DNA of 36,188 nt from a virus (lineage: Duplodnaviria > Caudoviricetes). The position numbers and the translations under genes are program-made. The notes beneath the pieces are model-generated. The model did not search any database. It had not been told where the DNA came from and saw nothing but the letters and a program-made list of their open reading frames with translations. The stretch lies in IMG/VR virus record IMGVR_UViG_3300005611_000091, positions 1 through 36,188 of that record; one strand, given 5' to 3'. Of the stretch, positions 3,914-26,110 are shown one piece after another; the stretch's first letter is position 1; each line of letters starts with the position of its first letter.

Positions 3914-3943
3914 ATTCTGGCGCAATTGGAGAGAGGTTAAATA

Positions 3944-4138
3944 ATGTCTTTTAAACCCGTGTTTATCATGCCCGACGGCGAGCGCGCTTCCAACGCGCAG
4001 AGGTTCGAGACGCGCGCAGAAGCTATTGCGAGTGCGCGCGCGCGCTTCATGCGTTGGACTATGCCAGCGGATTATGATGCCGAGCAAAGCGGCGACCCCA
4101 TCAATTACAAATATCAGGATGGAGATATTGCGATATGA
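3944..4138 (+). CDS. Hypothetical early protein (64 aa)
   Basis: GGAGAGAGG RBS; ATGA overlap with the next ORF. Confidence 0.8.
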   Translation: MSFKPVFIMPDGERASNAQRFETRAEAIASARARFMRWTMPADYDAEQSGDPINYKYQDGDIAI

Positions 4139-4376: not shown

Positions 4377-4491
4377 TCGACATTGCAATTCTATAGACCG
4401 CAACACAAACACAAACCAGGAGAAAATCATACCAAAATTCATTCACGACACCGTACCAAGCTGAACCCGTTTGATCGACATTGCTACAGAC

Positions 4492-4518
4492 CGCCGGGGC
4501 AAAAACCCCGGCGTTTTT
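4492..4518 (+). terminator. Rho-independent terminator ending the early block
   Basis: CGCCGGGG-caaaaa-CCCCGGCG then TTTTT. Confidence 0.8.
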
Positions 4519-4830
4519 ACCTGTTACCTCGAAAAACGGCGGTTTCCTGCCGCATACAGGCTGAAAGGTAACAGCAGGTAACTGGTAGACCGCCGCACCT
4601 GTTACCTCGCCCGATGGCGGTTTTCTGCGGCTTACAGGCTGAAAGGTAACAGGTAACAGGTAAAATACTATTTAACGTATATAGGGTAAGTATATATTAC
4701 ATATATACGCATCCCTATAGGGGGTAATGACATTTCACCTGTTACCTGTTACCTGTTACCTTTCGGCCCGAAACCCGCAGAAAACCGCCATTTCAAAAGG
4801 TAACAGGTCTACAGTTTACCTGTTACCTTT
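4519..4830. repeat. Putative replication origin: CTGTTACC iterons, three 56-bp units, AT-rich palindromic core
   Basis: Units at 4519-4574 and 4597-4652 (direct) and 4753-4808 (inverted); tandem GGTAACA/TGTTACC heptamers flank an AT-rich hairpin at 4680-4719; next to the helicase 3' end. Confidence 0.8.
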
Positions 4831-6323
4831 TCGACCGTTTCGGCCAACATTTTTCGAATTGTAATGTTTGACATTACATTTTGCGTCCAGACGCGGTGAA
4901 CTTCACCATCCATCTTCAACGTGCAGGGGGTAACTTGATACCCCAACCGTTTTAAAACCATCGCTTTAGACCGCGTATCCAACTTGAAACCAGGATACCT
5001 GATCGACACTTCCTTCCACAAATACGCCGACGAAATACAACCTTCCGTCACATAAAGCGCACCGCGATCAATCACAGAGCGGGCCTCTTCCAACCCCTCG
5101 AATGATGCTTCCTCGGTGGCGACCATCGCCAGCTTTGCATCGGTCATCGGAGCCTGACGCATCCGGTAGAACGACGCCGGGATGTCATAATCGAGCATGA
5201 ACCGCACCACCTCCGAACGATACCGGACCAGCCCATCAAACAGCGCCGGAAAATAATCGTCCTTGTCCATCCCGACAGCGGCAGACACGTCATCCAGCCC
5301 TCGTATGGGCGACTGGATGACCCACCACCGGCGATCAGTCGCCGCCACGGGGATAGCATCCAGCGCGTTAGTAAAGGCGATATAGTTGGTGCAGTTCCGC
5401 GTCACGTAAGGAGTAACGCCCTTCGGGTTGACCTGGATATACTCGTCCGTAATCAGCGGCTTCATCGCGTTGAGTGCCTCGTACCGGTTGTGACCGGCAA
5501 TCTTCAACTCCTCCAGGACGTTGACACACTTGTCCACCGCCCACGCATTGAACTGCGAGGCGACCTGATCGGGCTTGACGACGCCGACGTTCTCGACCCC
5601 GAGACACGCCCGCAACAACGCGCCGAAAAAACTTTTACCAACCCCTTCGATCGACTGTATCAGCGGCGTCCACAATACTTTCTGCCCGTAATTCTGGACG
5701 TTATGCGCCAACCATTGCATCAACACAGCGGCCGTCTCATCCGACCCGGTGAGCAACCGGACGTGGCTCTCGATCATCGCACAATACTCCCGCCCCTCGG
5801 CGGTCAGATCACCCTCACTCGGCAGCGAGTCCGCGTTGAACGTATTGACCACCGGCGATCCGTCCAGATCGACCAGCCGGTCGTCGCAGTCCGGCATATA
5901 GGCGGGCGCATCGACCACGGCCACCCGGCTGTCGTCCATACACCACGTATGAGCGGGCGGCTTACCACCTAGCATACCGCGCGGGACGCGTGAGCCATTC
6001 ATCAGGTTGAACGTCGTGATCGACGCGAACCGACCAGACACCAGGTTGAAATAGGCACCGTGCGACGACACCCAGACCCAGTCCGCGCACCATGAATCGT
6101 CCGGCTCCTCGATGACGACAGACCCCTTCAAGTCCTTGCGGACGACGGCAATCGGCAACCGCACAGAGGTTAACTCCTCGTACCGCGCCCGGTAGGCCAC
6201 GGCCAACCGCTCCCGCTCCTCACCCGACAACGCGGTGTCAGAGATCACCTGCTTGCACTCGACAAGGTACTCCTCATCCCCGCCGGCAATCGCCGCCAGT
6301 GCTTCGTTGAGATCGAACATCAT
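4809..6323 (-). CDS. SF3 (D5/P4-like) primase-associated DNA helicase
   Basis: Walker A QSIEGVGKS, SQFNAW, Walker B VLEEL, AFTN motif C, DRRW arginine finger. Confidence 0.88.
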   Translation of the reverse strand: MMFDLNEALAAIAGGDEEYLVECKQVISDTALSGEERERLAVAYRARYEELTSVRLPIAVVRKDLKGSVVIEEPDDSWCADWVWVSSHGAYFNLVSGRFASITTFNLMNGSRVPRGMLGGKPPAHTWCMDDSRVAVVDAPAYMPDCDDRLVDLDGSPVVNTFNADSLPSEGDLTAEGREYCAMIESHVRLLTGSDETAAVLMQWLAHNVQNYGQKVLWTPLIQSIEGVGKSFFGALLRACLGVENVGVVKPDQVASQFNAWAVDKCVNVLEELKIAGHNRYEALNAMKPLITDEYIQVNPKGVTPYVTRNCTNYIAFTNALDAIPVAATDRRWWVIQSPIRGLDDVSAAVGMDKDDYFPALFDGLVRYRSEVVRFMLDYDIPASFYRMRQAPMTDAKLAMVATEEASFEGLEEARSVIDRGALYVTEGCISSAYLWKEVSIRYPGFKLDTRSKAMVLKRLGYQVTPCTLKMDGEVHRVWTQNVMSNITIRKMLAETVEKVTGKL

Positions 6324-6541
6324 CCTCTCCTTGTACGTCTGGCGAGCGTTGGTTTGCCGGTTATCACCGTGATAATGGTCTCGCCCTCGAAGACGTAACT
6401 TATACCATCGACATAAGAATACAGCGCACCGGCGCGCATGGCGGGTTCGGCCGTCGCGGCCATTTCTTTCTTCATCGCAGCGATATCCAGCTTGTACTTG
6501 CGTTCGAGATACCGCAGGACGGCGTGATCTGTTACGTGCAT
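6320..6541 (-). CDS. Small protein with VTDHAVLRYLER motif
   Basis: GGAGG RBS; overlaps primase stop and helicase start; motif recurrent in phage small proteins. Confidence 0.75.
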   Translation of the reverse strand: MHVTDHAVLRYLERKYKLDIAAMKKEMAATAEPAMRAGALYSYVDGISYVFEGETIITVITGKPTLARRTRRG

Positions 6542-7446
6542 TTAAAAAACCTCCCGGCCAATTCCCGCATATCGCCCGACGCCAACTTCATCAGATCGGC
6601 CACCCCGCGCTCCGCGCAGTGTTCGTGCAGACAGGAAAACCCCCGCACCCCCGACCAACCGCCACAACCACGCCCGATAGGTGAGTACCCGGCGGTGTTA
6701 CCGCCTGACGTGTGCTGGTCCGCCCACGGACAGATAATATCGACGAACTCGCCCCGGTCGCACACAACCAGCCCGCGGTCGACCAACCATTGCAGCAGCA
6801 GGTCTTCTTTAGCCACAACCCCCACGTCTGGCGGACCCACATCCACGATCGGCAGAGCGGCAAGGTCTAGACCGAACTCAAACGCCAACCCGGCCATTGA
6901 GTACCGTGTCTCCGACCAGTGCGCCAGCCGCGCACGATACCCGTCGCGCCCCGGCTTGAGGTTCGCCGACCCTGGCACCCGGACAACGCGATAGGCACCA
7001 CCGGCCCCCCGGTCACCGTAGCCCAGCCGGTGGATAGCCTTCACCAGCGCCTCGAACCGGCCTAACTCCTCGTGCGTCGTCCCGACCAGCGCATAACCCC
7101 ACTGGAACGACCCCGGCGACGTCTCCAGGATATACGTCGGCTCGATAGCCGGCTCGCCGGTCTTGTCGCCTATATCGTCCAGCACCAGTACATACGGCCT
7201 GACCAGGTGCGACCGCCCGCGTAGCAAGCGGCCCTTATCGTTCACGGTCCCGTCCACGGTACAGACGCAATAATACATCGCCCGTGGATCGCTCTCGGGG
7301 TTCCAGCGGCGGAACAGCCGTGAGTCCGCCGAGACATTATTGAACCACATCGCCGTCGGGTCTTCGCGCATCGGAACACCCTCCGAGATGCAGACGACCT
7401 CGTCCGGCCCCGCACCAGTGAACAAGGTTCTTATAAAATCAGTCAT
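6532..7446 (-). CDS. RepB-like (AEP superfamily) DNA primase with C-terminal Zn-binding motif
   Basis: VLVLDDIG, LETSPGSFQWGY, RVVRVPGSANLKPGR; CPWADQH...FSCLHEHC. Confidence 0.85.
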   Translation of the reverse strand: MTDFIRTLFTGAGPDEVVCISEGVPMREDPTAMWFNNVSADSRLFRRWNPESDPRAMYYCVCTVDGTVNDKGRLLRGRSHLVRPYVLVLDDIGDKTGEPAIEPTYILETSPGSFQWGYALVGTTHEELGRFEALVKAIHRLGYGDRGAGGAYRVVRVPGSANLKPGRDGYRARLAHWSETRYSMAGLAFEFGLDLAALPIVDVGPPDVGVVAKEDLLLQWLVDRGLVVCDRGEFVDIICPWADQHTSGGNTAGYSPIGRGCGGWSGVRGFSCLHEHCAERGVADLMKLASGDMRELAGRFFKCT

Positions 7447-7505
7447 ATCTCATCCTCCGCCGTAGCGCAGAAGATGCCACACGAGAACCATGATACTATT
7501 CGCAT
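7443..7505 (-). pseudogene. 20-codon mini-ORF MRIVSWFSCGIFCATAEDEI; probable deletion remnant of a PAPS-reductase-like gene
   Basis: Manual translation; purine-rich RBS (GAGGAGGAGAG); ATGA overlap with the primase start. Confidence 0.55.
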
Positions 7506-7519
7506 TTTATCTCTCCTCC

Positions 7520-7608
7520 TCTCCCGTGTTGTGAAAGTTGCGAGGCGCAGATGGCAAGGGGGAGAGACCCTGCCAACCTTAGCAGCCACAACACCGCGCG
7601 CCTCGCCC
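7520..7608 (-). ncRNA. Structured leader / candidate antisense regulatory RNA of the primase operon
   Basis: 9-bp closing stem 7540-7548/7598-7606, inner hairpin 7552-7575 with UCUCUCC loop, unpaired GUGUUGUG (7587-7594); both segments complementary to CACAACAC-GGGAGA at 7520-7533. Confidence 0.6.
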
Positions 7609-7645
7609 GAGAAACCTACACGAAAAGAAAAAATAAAAAAAGCCC

Positions 7646-7674
7646 TTGCTTTTAAAAAAACAAAGGATTATGTT
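7646..7674 (+). promoter_or_regulatory. Sigma70 promoter of the accessory/replication operon
   Basis: TTGCTT-17 nt-TATGTT with upstream A-tracts (UP element-like). Confidence 0.7.
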
Positions 7675-7699
7675 CTCACCTCAACGACGGAGATGAAAA

Positions 7700-7948
7700 A
7701 TGAACATCCAGCATAAGCTACCCCTCACCAACATCCGGGACACCGACTTGTTCGACCTGGTGCTGCACTTCAAGCAACCGTGGTTGGAAGCAATCCTGAT
7801 GGAGTTGCAGAGCGGCCGCGACGGGGGTGGTGGTGAGGAGACGGCTCTCAAGAAAGAGATCGCTGACCTGGAGGAAGAGGTTCTCGAACTCCAGAAAGAG
7901 GTTGGCAATCTGAAAGAGAGGCTGTTCAAGGCCGAGGTCATCTACTGA
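7700..7948 (+). CDS. Hypothetical coiled-coil protein (82 aa)
   Basis: GGAG RBS; C-terminal heptad pattern; TGATG overlap. Confidence 0.75.
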   Translation: MNIQHKLPLTNIRDTDLFDLVLHFKQPWLEAILMELQSGRDGGGGEETALKKEIADLEEEVLELQKEVGNLKERLFKAEVIY

Positions 7949-8360: not shown

Positions 8361-8632
8361 CGCACCGAACGCCTGAACAGTGGGATTCCGATCTTGCGTG
8401 GTTTGCTTCGCTTGAAGGAGACAATCAGCGCGGCGACCTTTTCCGCGAATTACGCGCTGATATTGCTGAACTGGCGGCGGCCATTCCAACAACGTCAAAC
8501 CACGGCCTTTCCCGCGACCACATAGGGATACGGGAAGCGGGAACGGAATACCCGAAGGGGCATGACGCGCAATTGGCCCCGCAACAACCTGGACCGGGCG
8601 GCAGGCGCGTGCTGCCCGGCTCCGCAACCTGA
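8357..8632 (+). CDS. Hypothetical protein (91 aa)
   Basis: GGAG RBS; ATGA overlap; ends in junction motif. Confidence 0.6.
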   Translation: MTHRTPEQWDSDLAWFASLEGDNQRGDLFRELRADIAELAAAIPTTSNHGLSRDHIGIREAGTEYPKGHDAQLAPQQPGPGGRRVLPGSAT

Positions 8633-8878: not shown

Positions 8879-9346
8879 ATGATTTACATCGATATGGACG
8901 GCGTTGTTGCCGATTTTGACCAGTCAATCATCGATATCTTCGGTGAGGAATACAGCAACAAGATAGCCGATAAGTTCTGGAAACAGACATGTGTCGAGGC
9001 AGAGGTTTTTCGGCGGATGCCGCCAATCGCGGAGGGTATCGAAATGGTCGAAGCGATCCGCGCCTATCACGACATTTGTTTCATGACCTCGACAGGCGGA
9101 ATGCCGCACCACATCGACATCGCCAAGCAAAAACTCGATTGGCTTCACGCTCACGACCTGGGTCAGCACCCCGTCGCGTTCTGCATGAACACGCAGGGCA
9201 AGGGGCGATACGCACAACCGGGCGCGCCGTTGATCGATGACCGGAAGAAGGTTTGCGACGCATGGATCCAAGGCGGCGGGGTTGCCTACCTGTTTACGCG
9301 GGAAAGCGCGCTCAAGATCGTGGCTGACCTGTCCATCTACAACTAG
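8879..9346 (+). CDS. HAD-family 5'(3')-deoxyribonucleotidase-like phosphatase
   Basis: Motif I IYIDMDGVVADF, motif II MTS, KLDWL, motif IV LIDDR. Confidence 0.88.
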   Translation: MIYIDMDGVVADFDQSIIDIFGEEYSNKIADKFWKQTCVEAEVFRRMPPIAEGIEMVEAIRAYHDICFMTSTGGMPHHIDIAKQKLDWLHAHDLGQHPVAFCMNTQGKGRYAQPGAPLIDDRKKVCDAWIQGGGVAYLFTRESALKIVADLSIYN

Positions 9347-9358
9347 ACGAGTGGACAG

Positions 9359-9526
9359 ATGGAAGGTCAGGTTAGGTATCAGTGGGTCCGTTGGTCGCCC
9401 AATGAGGATTGGAAACCGGCGCAAATAGGCCCGGAGATTTTTTCGCTTCGCCTTATAGGCAGCGACCACCAATACGCGACCCGAGATTTTGAAATGGGTC
9501 CGTTTATCGAAACGCCGGATCAATAA
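9359..9526 (+). CDS. Hypothetical protein (55 aa, MEGQVRYQWVRWSPNEDWKPAQ...ETPDQ)
   Basis: Manual translation; fills the gap between junction motifs. Confidence 0.6.
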   Translation: MEGQVRYQWVRWSPNEDWKPAQIGPEIFSLRLIGSDHQYATRDFEMGPFIETPDQ

Positions 9527-9535
9527 GGAGCCGAT

Positions 9536-9694
9536 ATGCCGGAAAAAATATCATTCTCCGAGATACACGATCCGACCGACTGGACGCCGCGTTGTGCCGA
9601 CTTCGATGAAGATTGCGAGGAAGTGGCCTGCAAAATCGGCTGCTGGCTGTACGACATCAACAGGGGGTATTGCCCCTATCTGCGAACCAACTGA
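9536..9694 (+). CDS. Small Cys-rich protein (52 aa, MPEKISFSEIHDP...GYCPYLRTN)
   Basis: Manual translation; TAAGGAG RBS; five Cys. Confidence 0.65.
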   Translation: MPEKISFSEIHDPTDWTPRCADFDEDCEEVACKIGCWLYDINRGYCPYLRTN

Positions 9695-9709
9695 CGAGGG
9701 TAAAGCGAC

Positions 9710-9901
9710 ATGGCGACGAACCCCAAAATCAAGGCCTGTCCGGACTGCAAAACCGGCGATTACATGGCCGTTTACGAATACGAGAACGGCGCCCGGTATG
9801 TCGAATGCGGCAAGTGCTGGCGGCGAAGCCCCGGCGCCGGGAGCATCCGGCAGGCGATCAAACTGCACAACGCCGCCGTGACCGAAACGGCGGATCACTA
9901 G
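9710..9901 (+). CDS. Lar-like (restriction alleviation) Zn-ribbon protein
   Basis: KACPDC...YVECGKC...AIKLHN resembles the Lar pattern CPFCG...CxxC...AIxxWN. Confidence 0.7.
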   Translation: MATNPKIKACPDCKTGDYMAVYEYENGARYVECGKCWRRSPGAGSIRQAIKLHNAAVTETADH

Positions 9902-10184: not shown

Positions 10185-11338
10185 TGCCAACATTTCATTT
10201 CCCCATAGGCGGGTCCACCGCCGCCAGAACCCTCAACTGTCCAGGATGGCTCAAAGCCAGTGAAGGCATCCCGCCGAAGCCCGCGGGACTAGCAGCGATC
10301 GAGGGGTCCATGCTCCATGAGATCATGGAGATGTGTTACACCACGGACACCAGCCCCGCAGACCACGTCGGCCACGTCTATGAAGAAGACGGTCAGACCC
10401 GCGAGTTCTTCAAGGAAGATTACCCTCTGGCGAAGCGGGCGTTCGGCACGATGAACACACTCCTCGACGAACTTGATATTGACGAGTTCCTGGTCGAGCC
10501 GTTGGTCACCCTGATACCCGAACTCGCGGGTGGGTCGATCGACCTGCTGGGTATCAGCGCCGATCGTAAGACGGCACTGGTAGCCGATTGGAAGTTCGGA
10601 CGTCACATTGTCTCGGCAGAGCGCAACAGCCAGGGGTTGTTCTACATCATCAGCGCGATGGAAGACCCACAAACAAAGGACCTGTTTAAAGAGGTTGACA
10701 CGGTCGTCGCGGCGATCATCCAGCCGCAGAGCAAGAACGGCCTGAGCCGCTGGACGTGCAACATGAAAACGGTCGCCGACTTCCGGGTCGACATGATGGC
10801 CGCAATCGAGAAGGGTGAGGGTCTTAACCCCGGCGACTGGTGCAAGTACTGCCCCGCGCACCCGACGTGCAAGGCCGCTCGCGCCAACGTCGGCGCACTG
10901 GCGAAGCTGTCAGCCAAGAGTGACAATGAACTGGCCGAAGCTGCGGCGCAGGTTCTCGTCGTCGAGGATTGGGTCAAGGCCGTGAAAGAGGAGATTTACA
11001 TGCACCTCAAGAACGGTCGCCCCGTCCCCGGCTGGAAGCTCATCAACAAGCGGGCGTCCCGCAAGTGGACGGACCCCAAGGCGGCGGAGGCGTTCCTCAA
11101 GCAGAAGCGCGTCCCGCAACGGGTCTACCGCAACAATTCCTTCCGCACAGCACCACAGGTCGTGGACGCGCTCAAGGCGGAAGGCAAGAAGATTGATCTC
11201 GACGAGTTCATCGAGGTCAAGTCCTCCGGCACCACCGCTGCTCCTGTCTCTGATGAGGCGGAAGGGGTGGAACTGACGACGGTACCGGTCAACCTGGCGA
11301 ACTTGGTCGCCAACAACACAGAGAAAGAAGATAAATGA
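10184..11338 (+). CDS. Cas4-like PD-(D/E)xK exonuclease (DUF2800 family)
   Basis: GGSTAARTLNCPG, EGSMLHE, GSID...ADWKFG, WCKYCPAHPTC, VPGWKL; start at ATG 10184. Confidence 0.9.
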   Translation: MPTFHFPIGGSTAARTLNCPGWLKASEGIPPKPAGLAAIEGSMLHEIMEMCYTTDTSPADHVGHVYEEDGQTREFFKEDYPLAKRAFGTMNTLLDELDIDEFLVEPLVTLIPELAGGSIDLLGISADRKTALVADWKFGRHIVSAERNSQGLFYIISAMEDPQTKDLFKEVDTVVAAIIQPQSKNGLSRWTCNMKTVADFRVDMMAAIEKGEGLNPGDWCKYCPAHPTCKAARANVGALAKLSAKSDNELAEAAAQVLVVEDWVKAVKEEIYMHLKNGRPVPGWKLINKRASRKWTDPKAAEAFLKQKRVPQRVYRNNSFRTAPQVVDALKAEGKKIDLDEFIEVKSSGTTAAPVSDEAEGVELTTVPVNLANLVANNTEKEDK

Positions 11339-12060
11339 CTGATATGAATCTCCCACAGGTCGCGGGCGTCGGATCGCTGCGTGACGCTCTCACATCCCAC
11401 GTCAAGACGAACATCACGCAGGGTGGCGGGGAACAATTCCTCGGCTACAACAGCTATTCCGGCAAGTGGACGTTCGGTAAGGACAACGAGGTGATCGAGC
11501 CGGAAGACCGTCTGCGTATCGTACCGGAAGGGCTGCGCCACGGCTGGCACCTCTGGGTCGACAAGAAGGTGATGGAGGTCATGTCGTCGGTGTTCAAGCC
11601 GATGCCGGAGGAACCGGCCGCGGTGCAGGACTCCAAGGGCAAGCTTCAGCAAGCGTCCGAAGCGCGCGGCATGATGGCCGTCCTTGTGCTTGAAGACGAG
11701 GACGACATCCAGGTCTCATGGGAACACTCGACGGACGGTTGCCGCCGTGCGATCGACGGCGTCCTCTCGGAACTGATGCTCCGCGCACAGACCGAGGCCG
11801 AGTACCTGTACCCGGTCGTCAGCCTGACCTCCGGCACACCCTACGAGAACTCGTACAAGCCGGGTGAGATGATCACTCCACCGAAGATCGATATCGTCGG
11901 GTGGTGCAACCAGGACGGCGAGGAAGCACCGGACGCACCGAAGAAGGTCGCCGCACCGAAGGCCGAGGCGGAGCCTGCGGCTGAAGAAGAAGATGCGGAA
12001 GAACCCGCTGCGGAAGAGAACGCACCTGTTCGCCGCCGCCGCCAACGCACCGCGGCCTGA
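11335..12060 (+). CDS. Putative single-stranded DNA-binding protein
   Basis: Between the nuclease and polA; GKWTFG, YPVV..L...Y; long acidic tail ending RRRRQR. Confidence 0.7.
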   Translation: MTDMNLPQVAGVGSLRDALTSHVKTNITQGGGEQFLGYNSYSGKWTFGKDNEVIEPEDRLRIVPEGLRHGWHLWVDKKVMEVMSSVFKPMPEEPAAVQDSKGKLQQASEARGMMAVLVLEDEDDIQVSWEHSTDGCRRAIDGVLSELMLRAQTEAEYLYPVVSLTSGTPYENSYKPGEMITPPKIDIVGWCNQDGEEAPDAPKKVAAPKAEAEPAAEEEDAEEPAAEENAPVRRRRQRTAA

Positions 12061-12094: not shown

Positions 12095-12115
12095 ACACAA
12101 CACGGGAGATACAAG

Positions 12116-12613
12116 ATGGGAAAACGATCAAATTTTGAGCGGCGCGAGCGGGACTTTCACCCGACGCCATATGCGGCTGTGGTGCCGCTGTTGCCGCATC
12201 TGCCGCCACGCGCTCGCTACCATGAACCGTGCGTTGGCGACTACGATCTCGTTCGGCACTTGAGCGGACACGGACACCACGCGTCGGTAATGAGCGACAT
12301 CACAAGCGGGAAGGATGCGCTGGATATCACCTTCACCATCGCCGATATGTTCATCACGAATCCGCCGTGGAGACGTGACATTCTACACCCGGTGATTGAA
12401 CACCTCTCTGGCATTGCGCCGACGTGGCTGTTGTTCGATGCAGATTGGATGCACACGAAACAATCCGCGCCCTTTATGCCGTATTGCCAGAAGATTGTTT
12501 CCGTTGGTCGGGTCAAGTGGATTCCCGACAGCAAGATGACCGGCAAGGATAACTGCTGCTGGTACTTGTTCGACCAGAGCCGCTGCGAACCCACAGAGTT
12601 TTACGGACGGTGA
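12116..12613 (+). CDS. Small orphan DNA N6-adenine methyltransferase
   Basis: RDFHPTP, SAM-binding EPCVGD, catalytic ITNPPW; start at ATG 12116 after GGGAGA. Confidence 0.85.
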   Translation: MGKRSNFERRERDFHPTPYAAVVPLLPHLPPRARYHEPCVGDYDLVRHLSGHGHHASVMSDITSGKDALDITFTIADMFITNPPWRRDILHPVIEHLSGIAPTWLLFDADWMHTKQSAPFMPYCQKIVSVGRVKWIPDSKMTGKDNCCWYLFDQSRCEPTEFYGR

Positions 12614-14592
12614 CCCAACTCTTCCTCGACATTGAGACGCGCAGCCAGACCGACCTGCTGCTGCATGGTGTGCTGCGCTACGCCATAGACCCCTCGACGC
12701 AGTTGATCTGCGTCGGCTGGGCGTTCGATGACGATGACGTGCAGAACTGGTTCGCCGACAGCGGCGAGCCTTTTCCGCAGGAAATCATAGACCACATCAA
12801 GTCCGGCGGTATCATCTGGGCGCATAACGCGGCCTTCGAGCGACGCCTGTTTGAGTACGTGATCTGCAACGACTATGACTTCGACCCGCCGAAGCTGGAG
12901 CAGTGGCGGTGCAGCATGGTCGCGGCCACGACCAACGGCTTTCCCGGTGGTCTTGACGCAGCCGCAGTGGCGTTGGGCGCGAGCAAGCAGAAGCACAAGG
13001 ACGGCCCGCGCCTGATCCGCACCTACTGTGCGCCGGGGTTCACGACCGAGTGGATGTTCGACGACCGCAACCTGATGTCCGCGTACGTCAAGGACGATGT
13101 CGACACGATGCGCGGTATCATCCCGTGCTTCCGGCCGCTGACGGATTACGAGTGGTCGGAGTACCATCTCAACGAGCGCATTGCCGATCGTGGCATACCC
13201 GTCGACACCGAACTGTGCTTCAAGGCCCAGGCTTACGCCGAGGAACTGGCGGCGGATGCCAACAACGTGATCGCCGAGGTGACCGACGGCGCGATGCTCA
13301 AGCACACCGAGCGCAAGAGCCGCGACGCGTGGTTGTTCCCCCATCTGACCGAAGCGCAGAAGAAGTTGTTGGTCGTCTACAAGAAGGGCGAGAAGAAGCT
13401 GTCGCTCGACGCGGATCATCGGGACTACCTGCTGGCTTGCGATGATCTCGACGACAAGGCGCGGCAACTGCTGGAGGCGATGAACGACGCCGGCAGTAGC
13501 GCCCTCAAGAAATACGCGACTGCATATCACACCCACGTAAATGAACGTGTTCATAATGTGATCCAGTTCAATGGCGCACAGACGGGTCGCTTCACCGGCA
13601 GGGGTATCCAACCTCATAATTTCAAGAAGGACCGCGCCGACACGCCGAGGCACGAACTGGAGCATCTTATTGCCGCCATCAAGGCAGGAGAGCCGCTGCA
13701 TAGCCCGAACTACCAGATGGGGCAGGTCATGCGCGGCATGGTCTACCACCCTGACGGCCTTGCGTGGGTCGACTGGAGCCAGATTGAGGCCCGGGTAGCA
13801 CCGTGGTTGTCCATGAAGCCGAGCGGTGAAGACAAGATCAACATCTTCAACAGTGGCCTTGATGTGTACACCGTCGCGGCGGCAAAGATGTTCGACCGCA
13901 CTCTGGCAGAGGTCGACAAGAACTTCCGCCAGACCGGCAAGATCGCCGAGTTGTCGCTCCAGTTCGGTGGTGGTGCCGGGGCGCTACAAGGTATGGCCCG
14001 GAACTACGGGCAGCCGTTCGAGGACGACGAGGCCGACCAGATCGTCCGGCTGTGGCGCAAGGCCAACCCTTGGGCTGTAGAGATATGGGCTGACTACGAT
14101 CACGCGATCGAGTGTGCGGTGCAGAACCACGGGAGAACGTTCCATGCAGGTCGTGCGTCGTTCGCAGCGGACGAAAACTACCTGTGGTGCCGGCTCCCGA
14201 GCGAACGTCTGCTGGCCTACCCACGCCCCCGTATGGAGGAGTACGAGACACCTTGGGGTGAGGAGCGGTTTGGTCCGACCTTCCAGAGCCACTTCAAACC
14301 GGCCGTCGGAGAAGACCCCATCCGCCTGTATGCGCGCGGCGCGCTGCTGTTTCAGAACTCCGTCCAGGCGACCGCTGCGGATGTGTTGCGCGAGGCGCTG
14401 ATCGAGGCGGATGCAGATGGTCTGGAGATCGCCCTGCACGTCCATGATGAGATCGTGGTCTACGGCGGTGAGGCCGAGGGCGCACAACTGAACGAGATCA
14501 TGCTCACCCAACCGTGGTGGGCGGAAGGATTACCCATCGCAACGGGTGGCGTTGAAACTGGCGAGCGTTGGCTCGCTGAAAAGGGAGAGTGA
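12610..14592 (+). CDS. polA: Family A DNA polymerase with 3'-5' exonuclease
   Basis: ExoI LDIETRS, ExoII HNAAFER, ExoIII YVKDDV, TGRFTG, motif A DWSQIEAR, motif B RQTGKIAELSLQFG, motif C HVHDEI. Confidence 0.96.
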   Translation: MTQLFLDIETRSQTDLLLHGVLRYAIDPSTQLICVGWAFDDDDVQNWFADSGEPFPQEIIDHIKSGGIIWAHNAAFERRLFEYVICNDYDFDPPKLEQWRCSMVAATTNGFPGGLDAAAVALGASKQKHKDGPRLIRTYCAPGFTTEWMFDDRNLMSAYVKDDVDTMRGIIPCFRPLTDYEWSEYHLNERIADRGIPVDTELCFKAQAYAEELAADANNVIAEVTDGAMLKHTERKSRDAWLFPHLTEAQKKLLVVYKKGEKKLSLDADHRDYLLACDDLDDKARQLLEAMNDAGSSALKKYATAYHTHVNERVHNVIQFNGAQTGRFTGRGIQPHNFKKDRADTPRHELEHLIAAIKAGEPLHSPNYQMGQVMRGMVYHPDGLAWVDWSQIEARVAPWLSMKPSGEDKINIFNSGLDVYTVAAAKMFDRTLAEVDKNFRQTGKIAELSLQFGGGAGALQGMARNYGQPFEDDEADQIVRLWRKANPWAVEIWADYDHAIECAVQNHGRTFHAGRASFAADENYLWCRLPSERLLAYPRPRMEEYETPWGEERFGPTFQSHFKPAVGEDPIRLYARGALLFQNSVQATAADVLREALIEADADGLEIALHVHDEIVVYGGEAEGAQLNEIMLTQPWWAEGLPIATGGVETGERWLAEKGE

Positions 14593-14593
14593 A

Positions 14594-14668
14594 ATGCAGG
14601 TTCTCATATACGTGGTGTCGTTCGTCGCGGTTTTTGTTCTGTTCAAACTGCTGATCGGTGCGGCGTGA
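14594..14668 (+). CDS. 24-aa single-TM peptide MQVLIYVVSFVAVFVLFKLLIGAA
   Basis: Manual translation; GGGAGAG RBS; GTGA overlap with the VRR-NUC start. Confidence 0.55.
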   Translation: MQVLIYVVSFVAVFVLFKLLIGAA

Positions 14669-14970
14669 AGTCTGAAGCAGCCCTTGAACGCTACCTCAAG
14701 CGTGAGGCCGAGGCGCATGACATCTTCATACGCAAGGTGCAGGCGGTCGGTTACCCGGGCTTCCCTGACAGGCTGCTGGCCTGTGACGGACGGGTGATGT
14801 TCATCGAGTTGAAGTCCCCGACCGGCCGGGGTGTCCTGTCGCCGAAACAGATATACACAATCGAGAAGATGGCCGGACACGGACTCGACGTTCGTGTGAT
14901 CGCCAGCAAAGAAGGAGTGGACGATGCTATCAGAGAGTTGCTTGACCCCCGAACAGAACGCGGCGATTGA
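14665..14970 (+). CDS. VRR-NUC domain nuclease
   Basis: SEAALE, GFPDRL, FIELKSPTG..LSPKQ. Confidence 0.92.
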   Translation: MKSEAALERYLKREAEAHDIFIRKVQAVGYPGFPDRLLACDGRVMFIELKSPTGRGVLSPKQIYTIEKMAGHGLDVRVIASKEGVDDAIRELLDPRTERGD

Positions 14971-23599: not shown

Positions 23600-26110
23600 T
23601 CAGAAGGTCACTGCGTGTTGAGACGGCGGGAAGAAGTGTGTCTGCTCATTTTCTTCCAACAACCTTTTCTCCGCCCGCTTCATCGACCCCGGGTTCATCG
23701 CCTCTTGAATACCGTGAAGTATAAGATAATCCAATGCCGCCTTGGTGTAAAACAGATTGATGAACGGAGTGTTCTGTATGGTTGTGCGCCAAGCGGCTGC
23801 TGCGGCGTCATCACCATCCCTAAGCCGCTGGAATATATCGACAATATCGTCGAACACACCAGCAGTCGGTCCCGCCAAGGTTGTCAGAGCGCCGCCGCCG
23901 AAGCGGTTCTTCATATCACCAAACAGGAAGTCACCGTAAATACCCATGCCGCCGCCCTGCACCATCGCGGCCATCCACGTCTTCACGTTATCTGGATCGC
24001 GAGGCTCGCGTCCTTTGGCGAGGTCTTTCGCGCTCATGGCAAGATAACCAAACGCGGTGTTCCAGAGGATGAGGCGGGCGAGGCCGGTCATCTCTCCGTT
24101 CCCGTTCCGCATTGCCTCGCCGAGTGTATTGGCACCTTTACCATAAATCTCCCGCGCAAGCGGTTTCTGGAACACTGTCGCTGTGAAGGACTTGAACAGC
24201 GCCAGATGGCGGAGTGTCTCACCCTCCACCGTCCCCGGGCGGGTACCACGCAGGAGGTACGAGCGAGTCTTGTCGTCCGGCTCGATCACTGCCATGTTGG
24301 CACGATCGTAGAAGTATTCTCGGAACTGCCCTGCGATCTCCTCCCGAGCGTCGTCGATCCGGCGTTTTGTTACCGGCTGACCGGCGTCCCGCAGGAAGTT
24401 CGAGAACACCTCGTCAGGTAGGTTCTCAACACCCTCGGGGGTCAGCATAACCTTGTCGGCAAACGTCTCCGGGTTTGATCGGATTATGTCCCACTTCGAG
24501 GAGTCGATGCCGTAGAAACCAAACACCCTCTGCAACCCCTCATCCAACTGGTCGAACGCCCGGTTGGCTTGCAGACCGAGATCGTGTGACCGAGACGCAG
24601 CGAAACCCGTCCTGATCTGATCCGTCCACCAACGCAACCCGTTGACCTTGAAGAACAAGCTTGTGATCGCCGACACCCGTCCGGGGGTTGTGTCCGATAC
24701 GTCGAACCGCTTCGTCATCGCAGATATCATTCCATCGTGGATGACCCCGAGAGACGCCATCAGGCGCGCCCGCTCAGACTTCGGCATATTCTCTCCGAGA
24801 CTGGTGAGCGCCTCCAACACCCCGCTAAGGAATGAACCACCTTGGTATTTCACCTCCGACGCAGAGAAGCTGATGTCAGCGAAACCGGATATCATTGCAC
24901 CACCTAGCTTCGACCACTGCTGGATGGCGCGGGCGGTCTGCGATACCTGCGCTGCCATGTGACTGCCGGGGACGTTCGCCAGACCGTTTATGTGGGGCCA
25001 CAACGTCCGCATGATCTGCTCGAACTTCCTGTCGAACTTCCCGGCATTCGGGTTGTTATCCTTCTCCATCTGTTTGAGAATTTGTTCGCGAACAGTCCTG
25101 ATGTTGGCGTCTGCGTTCGGGCCGAGGTGTTTCATTATGGCAATGTCGCGGCTCATCTTCTCCATGCCGTACATCACGCTCTCGGACAGCTTCGGAGCGC
25201 CGTACTTCTTACTGTACTCGAACTCCGCCGCCCCGTTTTTAAAGTGCATCACCCGCTCATGACTCACCTTGCGCCCGATATTGGCGATCCCGAGGAACTT
25301 GCTCTCGGGGCGCGCGCGGGGCGCACCGTACTCCGATGTCAGGTGGACGCCCTGAGACAGCCGGTGGTACAACCGCTGCATCAAAGCATCCCGATCTGCG
25401 ACCGGCACGTCAGGGAACGAGCGGTCCCAGTCGACATTCTCGCGGATGAAGCCCATCCACCCTTCGCGATCCGCTTTTATCTTGGCGTCGTCATGGATTC
25501 GTTTGTGGACGTAACCATCAAGCTTGCCGATGTCCGCACCCCAACGGTTCGCCAGGACGCGCATACTCTCGTTGAATTTCTGGATGATCTCCGCTGCCTT
25601 ACGGGCGTCGGGGTTTATCCCGTCGAAGTTCTGCCCCGACTTCTTGTCCATTTCGTGCATGGCTTTGAAGATGTCCGCATCCAACTCGCCCTTCACGTAG
25701 GCGTTGTGAATACCGGCTACCTCCATCTCGTACACCACACCCATCGCATGTTTGGCAAAGAGGGAACTGTGTGTGGCGATGACACTCGATCGGGAGCCTT
25801 TCCTCGCACCTTTGGTTACGCCAGCCAGCATAGCCTCGACACCAAGTCCGGGATTATCTGCCCATGTCGTCATAACGTAGTCGTACATCTCCAGCCGGCG
25901 CATCTTGTTCAGCACCGCCTGCCGCTGCTTCTGCCACGCGGCCCGCTTCAACGGCTCCACGATACGGCGCACGGCGTCATCCGGGGTCAGGATGTCCTCC
26001 TGCTCCGAGAACTTCTGCCACAGAGAAATCAGGTTGTCCGTATCATCGTCGGTCAACTCGCGACCAGCCGCCTTCTCTATCTCCGCCATACACGCCTGGT
26101 AAGACATCAA
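23600..26110 (-). CDS. Large internal virion (ejection) protein
   Basis: 836 aa, helical, RGTRPGTVEGE..R....FKSF, QGGGMGIYGDFLF; last of the internal-protein cluster. Confidence 0.8.
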   Translation of the reverse strand: MMSYQACMAEIEKAAGRELTDDDTDNLISLWQKFSEQEDILTPDDAVRRIVEPLKRAAWQKQRQAVLNKMRRLEMYDYVMTTWADNPGLGVEAMLAGVTKGARKGSRSSVIATHSSLFAKHAMGVVYEMEVAGIHNAYVKGELDADIFKAMHEMDKKSGQNFDGINPDARKAAEIIQKFNESMRVLANRWGADIGKLDGYVHKRIHDDAKIKADREGWMGFIRENVDWDRSFPDVPVADRDALMQRLYHRLSQGVHLTSEYGAPRARPESKFLGIANIGRKVSHERVMHFKNGAAEFEYSKKYGAPKLSESVMYGMEKMSRDIAIMKHLGPNADANIRTVREQILKQMEKDNNPNAGKFDRKFEQIMRTLWPHINGLANVPGSHMAAQVSQTARAIQQWSKLGGAMISGFADISFSASEVKYQGGSFLSGVLEALTSLGENMPKSERARLMASLGVIHDGMISAMTKRFDVSDTTPGRVSAITSLFFKVNGLRWWTDQIRTGFAASRSHDLGLQANRAFDQLDEGLQRVFGFYGIDSSKWDIIRSNPETFADKVMLTPEGVENLPDEVFSNFLRDAGQPVTKRRIDDAREEIAGQFREYFYDRANMAVIEPDDKTRSYLLRGTRPGTVEGETLRHLALFKSFTATVFQKPLAREIYGKGANTLGEAMRNGNGEMTGLARLILWNTAFGYLAMSAKDLAKGREPRDPDNVKTWMAAMVQGGGMGIYGDFLFGDMKNRFGGGALTTLAGPTAGVFDDIVDIFQRLRDGDDAAAAAWRTTIQNTPFINLFYTKAALDYLILHGIQEAMNPGSMKRAEKRLLEENEQTHFFPPSQHAVTF

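Follow-up and report, generated by a model that had tools for sequence, protein, structure and literature searches.

A candidate two-loop antisense RNA in the primase leader of an uncultured podovirus-like phage

Could a short RNA from the leader of a phage primase gene pair with the translation starts of several genes at once? This question is raised by a 67-base element lying just ahead of the primase gene in the window, that is, the whole 36,188-nt stretch of DNA analyzed, which represents most of an uncultured podovirus-like phage (the record is 91% complete). Terminase, capsid, tail, PolA, helicase and nuclease genes and a split RepB-type primase were recognized (PHROG scan of 49 chosen ORFs; Pfam), and scans of this record for a tyrosine integrase (PF00589) and an HTH_3 domain (PF01381) found neither. 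The same phage is also represented by a longer assembly with 3,466 nt more; among the four ORFs scanned in that addition, the matches were to a head-tail connector, a protease-like protein and a family of unknown function. The leader element sits in a divergent control region, from which the primase is read leftward and an operon of small genes, exonuclease, SSB and Pol is read rightward. The features of this region and of the genes concerned are as follows.

4809-6323, minus strand: primase/helicase C-terminal gene
6532-7446, minus strand: RepB-type primase N-terminal gene (PF16793; PHROG primase)
7443-7484, minus strand: predicted hairpin (10+6 bp) hiding the primase SD and AUG
7443-7505, minus strand: 20-codon mini-ORF, its stop overlapping the primase AUG
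7540-7606, minus strand: predicted three-way-junction RNA (closing stem P1 of 9 bp, hairpin P2, hairpin P3)
7560-7567, minus strand: segment b', the P3 loop, anti-SD-like
7587-7594, minus strand: segment a' in the P2 loop, the predicted specificity loop
7613-7618, minus strand: putative -10-like hexamer 6 nt before P1, read from the sequence; same position in the relative L084, with a gap of 7 nt
7646-7674, plus strand: divergent promoter-like element (TTG-type hexamer, 17 nt, TA-type hexamer), found by eye
11335-12060, plus strand: probable SSB gene, labeled from its position and acidic tail, without a Pfam match
12116-12613, plus strand: DNA methyltransferase gene

The leader RNA and the primase start

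On the primase-sense strand, positions 7539-7606 fold at -40.1 kcal/mol (z -4.84), a stability that none of 200 shuffles equaled. The opposite strand folds at -30.2 kcal, the primase-sense strand being favored by 10 kcal. The first-pass annotation had described a closing stem, an unpaired junction strand GUGUUGUG and an inner hairpin. The closing stem was found as described, but GUGUUGUG is not an unpaired strand: six of its eight bases form the terminal loop of a second hairpin, and the RNA is therefore predicted to be a three-way junction with two terminal loops, the other loop being UCUCUCCC. The segments come in the same order in both partners (a' then b' in the RNA, a then b in the target), so that the two together do not form a plain inverted repeat. 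The -10-like hexamer, likewise proposed earlier, is present at 7613-7618, 6 nt before the stem. No -35 box was found for it, and a sigma70 scan gave no promoter-like site in 7300-7900 and none in L084 either; the divergent element at 7646-7674, which has a similar counterpart in L084, falls under the threshold of that scan. A de novo detector of three-way junctions was applied to 150 of 192 loci (909 kb, 352 folds); it put the window on top by a margin of 0.1 kcal and failed to detect L084, and was set aside as uninformative. We regard the leader element as real and as a probably selected RNA element.

Downstream of the element, the 3' part of the mini-ORF contains the predicted hairpin over the primase start (-21.7 kcal, z -4.39, 0 of 200 shuffles). 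This hairpin hides both the SD and the AUG of the primase, and translation of the primase therefore likely depends on that of the mini-ORF; the coupling suggested in the first-pass annotation thus gains a predicted structural basis. Searches did not support a derivation of the mini-ORF from a PAPS-reductase-like gene.

Relatives were sought by primase, exonuclease, SSB and Pol scans, which gave a single distinct close relative, L084, with which L083 is identical in sequence. L084 and the window form a 99/99 clade in a Pol tree of 20 rows and have the same divergent gene layout, and a homologous three-way-junction RNA lies at the same place, at L084:9886-9958 (-40.8 kcal, z -2.62, 4 of 200 shuffles). 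The two RNAs are colinear and share 38 of 68 bases, which 4 of 1000 shuffles equaled, and the main gap falls in the P3 loop. The cis target of L084 overlaps the ribosome-binding site of the primase directly, without a mini-ORF. A pattern scan for RNA plus target in viral contigs gave no match, SSB scans of viral contigs and scans of genome contigs gave no useful relatives, and blastn with the leader returned chance matches only. A two-sequence RNA model built from the window and L084 and run on 100 sources found only its own inputs below an E-value of 1. Among sequencing runs, none was listed as carrying the RNA, which speaks neither for nor against it. Cultured phages are distant, with at most 36% identity in Pol and 49% in TerL; closer relatives were seen as proteins only, namely the primases P0003 and P0004 (74%) and the SSBs P0021-P0023 (62-79%).

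Several further observations concern the gene order of the two phages. The window primase (4809-7446) is split into genes of 304 and 504 aa with a 73-aa ORF in between, unlike the single 763-aa primase gene of L084 (9989-12280). At the end of the primase/helicase gene, window 4515-4830 is rich in short copies of an 8-9 nt repeat, both direct and inverted, that surround an AT-rich center, and is likely a replication origin; a similar AT-rich stretch is found at L084 12300-12450. A possible decayed start site lies at window 4400-4425 (plus strand), where 12 nt separate an a-like 8-mer from an SD-like 5-mer and no start codon follows. Three early ORFs carry an 8-nt motif between stop and SD (window 8629, 8858 and 9691, plus strand), which may resemble the hammerhead core, and two of these three sites share a 12-nt exact repeat. 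A small ORF at window 9710-9901 (plus strand) matches Lar-like restriction alleviation proteins weakly (E 2e-4). The divergent operon of L084 opens with a pentapeptide-repeat gene (9149-9757, minus strand), and an LPD29/methyltransferase-like early gene of this phage is found at 13159-14859 (minus strand).

Start sites matched by the loops

The sites in the window that the two loops are predicted to recognize are the following.

3921-3934, plus strand: predicted target (6+7 bp) before an early-cassette ORF (3944-4138)
6324-6335, minus strand: weaker predicted target (5+7 bp) before the primase/helicase C-terminal gene
7518-7533, minus strand: cis target a+b (8+8 bp) in the ribosome-binding region of the mini-ORF, 6 nt after P1
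7684-7693, plus strand: weak target (5+5 bp) before the first gene of the divergent operon (7700)
11313-11324, plus strand: predicted target (7+5 bp) before the probable SSB gene
12096-12109, plus strand: trans target, an exact 14-mer (8+6 bp), before the DNA methyltransferase gene; best trans site genome-wide

The first-pass annotation had noted a 14-mer shared by the mini-ORF and methyltransferase starts, with the caveat that such a repeat can arise by chance. The exact copies were recovered at 7520-7533 (minus strand) and 12096-12109 (plus strand), the latter ahead of the methyltransferase start at 12116, and no other copy exists at up to two mismatches. By chance, 0.27 matches are expected at up to two mismatches, and 3 of 100 shuffles gave two or more. 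The shorter site reported before SSB was also found, at 11313-11324 (plus strand), with the SSB start at 11335. A late gene at 26107 also scores 5+7 bp with the loops of the window RNA.

Every position on both strands was scored for contiguous helices in the order a' then b', with the cis site and the RNA itself masked; this scoring replaced a loose duplexfold scoring, which was noisy and discriminated poorly. A match was defined as a top site 4-30 nt before a hand-picked start, of which there were 48 in the window and 28 in L084 (20.9 of 41.3 kb covered). With their own loops, the numbers of starts among the top 10/20/50 sites were 2/5/6 for the window and 4/5/7 for L084; with the RNAs swapped they were 1/1/1 and 0/0/0, and position alone predicts about 0.36 start sites in the top 20. 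Four shuffled-loop nulls (200 shuffles each) gave, for the top 20, P values of 0.005, 0.03, 0.01 and 0.085 in the window and 0, 0.03, 0.015 and 0.045 in L084, the window nulls being weaker at the top 10 (P 0.065-0.265) and top 50 (P 0.03-0.16). One of the five top-20 matches of the window is the late gene at 26107. Those of L084 include the gene at 8399, cassette genes and the first gene of the divergent operon, which has a 6+7 bp site where the matching window gene (7700) has 5+5 bp.

Early starts outscored late ones with the own RNA in both phages (window, 27 vs. 21 starts, p 0.028; L084, 22 vs. 6 starts, p 0.001), but not with the RNA of the other phage (p 0.29 and 0.20). Sites scoring -20 or better in the order a-then-b versus the reversed order numbered 6 vs. 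0 in the window and 5 vs. 3 in L084. The loops of the L084 RNA differ from those of the window and match different start sites. The co-variation of loop and target among relatives, suggested earlier as a check, is thus seen between the window and L084: the results fit loops and start sites of the full two-loop RNA varying together, in two phages only.

Since the loops are complementary to ribosome-binding sites and the relative makes its matches in different letters, the RNA likely turns genes down by pairing. With moderate confidence, and judging from sequence and modeled folds, we propose that 7540-7606 (minus strand) encodes a trans-acting antisense RNA lowering the translation of the primase and of other early and replication genes. 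Transcription would start at about the first base of P1 (about 7606), and the RNA would either act as a leader or be trimmed to some 67-70 nt and accumulate. Segment b' would cover the SD, while a' would pair just upstream and provide specificity. Pairing in cis would block translation of the 20-codon mini-ORF, so that the hairpin over the primase SD and AUG would stay closed; in trans, the methyltransferase, SSB, primase C-terminal and early-cassette genes would be damped. In a phage in which no protein repressor was detected, the net effect would be negative feedback, bringing the early phase to an end or keeping replication in check. The CI/C4-like regulator of different sequence envisaged in the first-pass annotation fits both the loop/start covariation between the window and L084 and the structural basis of the mini-ORF coupling.

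It is also conceivable, though in our judgment unlikely, that the element is a cis-only switch, in which the leader folds onto the site 6 nt downstream and tunes the primase alone, the distant copies being duplicated start regions of a kind habitual in this phage family. This reading has real support: the cis site is the best match to the leader RNA in the window, no terminator or processing signal delimiting a free RNA was found, and start regions share further exact repeats (12 nt in the window, 13-17 nt in L084). Furthermore, in the sister phages L191, L193 and L194 genome-specific A-rich motifs are repeated at exonuclease and SSB start sites, and no antisense copy of them was seen in the sequence examined:

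L191 5546-5561: A-rich start-site motif
L193 2541 and 3722: A-rich start-site motifs
L194 8335-8360, 9968-9986 and 4423: A-rich start-site motifs

What argues against a switch confined to the primase is that the best a' matches in L084 are the trans sites 9757 and 8399 rather than the cis site, and that the related loop of the sister phages, described below, sits after ssb and has its best matches kilobases away. As a side observation, a 71-80 aa ORF precedes the exonuclease in L191, L193 and L194; it may be Cro-like and gave no PHROGs match.

An improbable alternative is that the loops mimic the tail of 16S rRNA or bind a protein, the start-site complementarity being a by-product of strong SDs. 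C/U-rich b' loops would fit any strong SD, the window b' alone is not enriched (1 start in the top 10, with 17 of 40 shuffles as good), and most sister loops score about equally on one another's genomes. Yet both RNAs have anti-SD loops and swapping them abolishes the enrichment; a', which is not SD-like, pairs over 7-8 bp at three starts, and its replacement reduces the number of start-site matches (P 0.01-0.03 at the top 20). We likewise give little credence to translational activation or guided cleavage as the outcome of pairing at the same start sites. In favor of this, b' would open a weak hairpin (-3.5 kcal) that can form at the cis site, and some of the target genes are required in quantity when the phage replicates; on the other hand, at most targets the bases that b' covers are the SD-like ones themselves, and the sites at 12096 and 11313 are predicted to be open already. 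Finally, a single-stranded DNA structure recognized by the RepB-type primase, with translation not involved, is very improbable: RepB-type primases read DNA hairpins, and the element adjoins such a gene and folds as DNA as well (z -4.28), but in the window and L084 alike the RNA fold is about twice as stable and draws on G-U pairing in the primase-sense strand, and the loop/start-site matches would be left unexplained.

Post-ssb hairpins in sister phages

The antisense reading was followed into more distant phages, as the two-sequence model gave weak matches (E 2.7-4.1) between SSB and Pol in sister phages, which have the primase in line. At least 10 of 68 distinct post-ssb regions, picked by eye, contain a hairpin of 10-14 bp, mostly followed by a U tract, whose loop of 12-17 nt ends in an anti-SD motif.

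L145:4215-4274: post-ssb hairpin
L094:4854-4914: post-ssb hairpin
L106:5488-5548: post-ssb hairpin
L147:5480-5546: post-ssb hairpin
Six more loci: post-ssb hairpin

The stem of the ten hairpins covaries: 93.3% of the cells are paired and 5 of 12 pairs have changed on both sides, figures that are inflated by kinship. A model of the ten, run on 97 loci, matched only these phages and their duplicates, with one copy each in three of five whole records and no match in the complete genome G007. No Rfam match was obtained in the three loci tested.

Among the ten best sites of the loop, six in L094, five in L145 and five in L106 fell in automatic start windows (1, 0 and 0 of 40 shuffles, respectively), and the test was not significant in the other seven sisters, several of which are short or without an early cassette. 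The variant loop of L147 matches three variant starts, including those of the helicase and the primase C-terminal gene, at about -17 kcal versus -11 kcal for the common loop, but the cassette starts of L147 fit other loops better than its own. In the G006 record, from which the early cassette is absent, the predicted variant motif is present only as the loop's own complement. The common target core was found at 12 of 26 cassette starts in four carriers versus 2 of 22 in five loci without a model match, with kinship uncontrolled; two further loci gave no genes.

P3 of L084 aligns to all ten sister hairpins (0-45 of 1000 shuffles) and P3 of the window to none (98-632 of 1000), by a null that ignores hairpin make-up. 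The sister model ranks the L084 P3 first in its locus, loop included, at 17.1 bits, which is below the 18.2 bits of a generic window hairpin, and did not find the leader hairpin of the window. Because only the L084 P3 was aligned or listed by the model, the sequence comparison is suggestive of descent of the leader RNA from the post-ssb hairpin directly for L084, and for the window indirectly, via L084 only. L084 also has a post-ssb hairpin of its own (6195-6240, minus strand), whose 10-nt C/U loop is a second anti-SD-like loop, and the window has only a tetraloop hairpin at this position.

A wider scenario, which we offer tentatively and hold to be rather doubtful, is that a family of podoviruses without a repressor times its early phase by RNA. 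A loop resembling the 16S tail at the end of the ssb transcript would silence strong early starts in trans; in the clade of the window, the hairpin would have moved to the primase leader and gained a closing stem and a second specificity loop, resulting in a C4-like RNA of independent origin with a multi-operon replication regulon.

Comparison with C4, CI and anti-SD-loop RNAs

As proposed in the first-pass annotation, the element was compared with Rfam, and no match was obtained there; the C4 model (RF01695) has a gathering score of 45 bits, and its best score in the window genome was 13.4 bits, at 9387-9473. Membership in the C4 family was rejected in view of the missing model match, another loop layout, no upstream target and a different context. 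By analogy, the leader RNA likely acts like C4 and CI from outside the C4 family. Within c4-icd-ant, icd and ant are translationally coupled.

In the available portions of the sources, the C4 RNA of P1/P7 has three stems, a' giving specificity upstream and b' covering the ribosome-binding site (PMC5320573), and it precedes a small ORF upstream of a key gene, in the order c4-icd-ant (PMC8198154); further excerpts on C4 are PMC12197685 and PMC2864571. Compared with these accounts, the leader RNA is similar in its build (three stems, a length of about 70-77 nt, and an origin from the leader of the very operon under control; PMC5320573), in preceding a small ORF upstream of a key gene, here the primase, and, by complementarity, in dividing its pairing between an upstream specificity segment a' and a segment b' on the ribosome-binding site (8+8, 8+6 and 7+5 bp at three starts). 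In contrast to C4 as described in the same excerpts, it has two loops only, both of them antisense terminal loops, without the tetraloop hairpin. No upstream a1/b1 copy was seen in the leader, whose -10-like box lies 6 nt before P1, and the 5' end is predicted at the promoter instead of an internal cut; the leader RNA sequence starts with GGC/GCG, while RNase P processes C4 at a GGW 5' end. Moreover, C4 acts on the icd-ant antirepressor genes of a temperate phage, whereas here the downstream gene is the primase, no integrase or HTH_3 repressor was found, and predicted targets lie in other operons too.

The CI RNA of the satellite P4 appears, in the part of the source available, as a leader-derived antisense RNA limiting replication-gene expression (PMC4825925), and an excerpt of another describes it as a structural homolog of C4 (PMC3632133). 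The leader RNA is, by comparison with these excerpts, likewise a leader-derived candidate antisense RNA with replication genes (primase) downstream. CI pairs with seqA upstream and seqC downstream and causes premature termination; for the leader RNA, predicted sites were found only downstream in cis and at a distance, and unlike a C4 homolog it does not match C4.

Cuckoo, CcsR and ar14 RNAs are hairpins displaying C/U-rich anti-SD loops, as does the post-ssb hairpin of the sister phages. Unlike Cuckoo and ar14, neither the window nor the three sister loci gave an Rfam match, and unlike all three, the post-ssb hairpin occurs once per record (three records), with loops that appear tuned to the phage's own starts. 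No report of the leader RNA or of the post-ssb hairpin was found in the literature covered, most subscription papers lying outside this coverage.

As far as the available literature excerpts describe them, C4 and CI serve immunity in temperate or satellite phages, each acting inside its own operon. If the antisense reading is true, the same two-loop logic would operate where neither an integrase nor an HTH_3 repressor was detected and would reach the starts of several operons. Its origin from a simpler post-ssb anti-RBS hairpin may then be traceable, showing how such RNAs arise, and short swapped loop/target pairs make the reading directly testable. The pairing principle is already known from C4 and CI.
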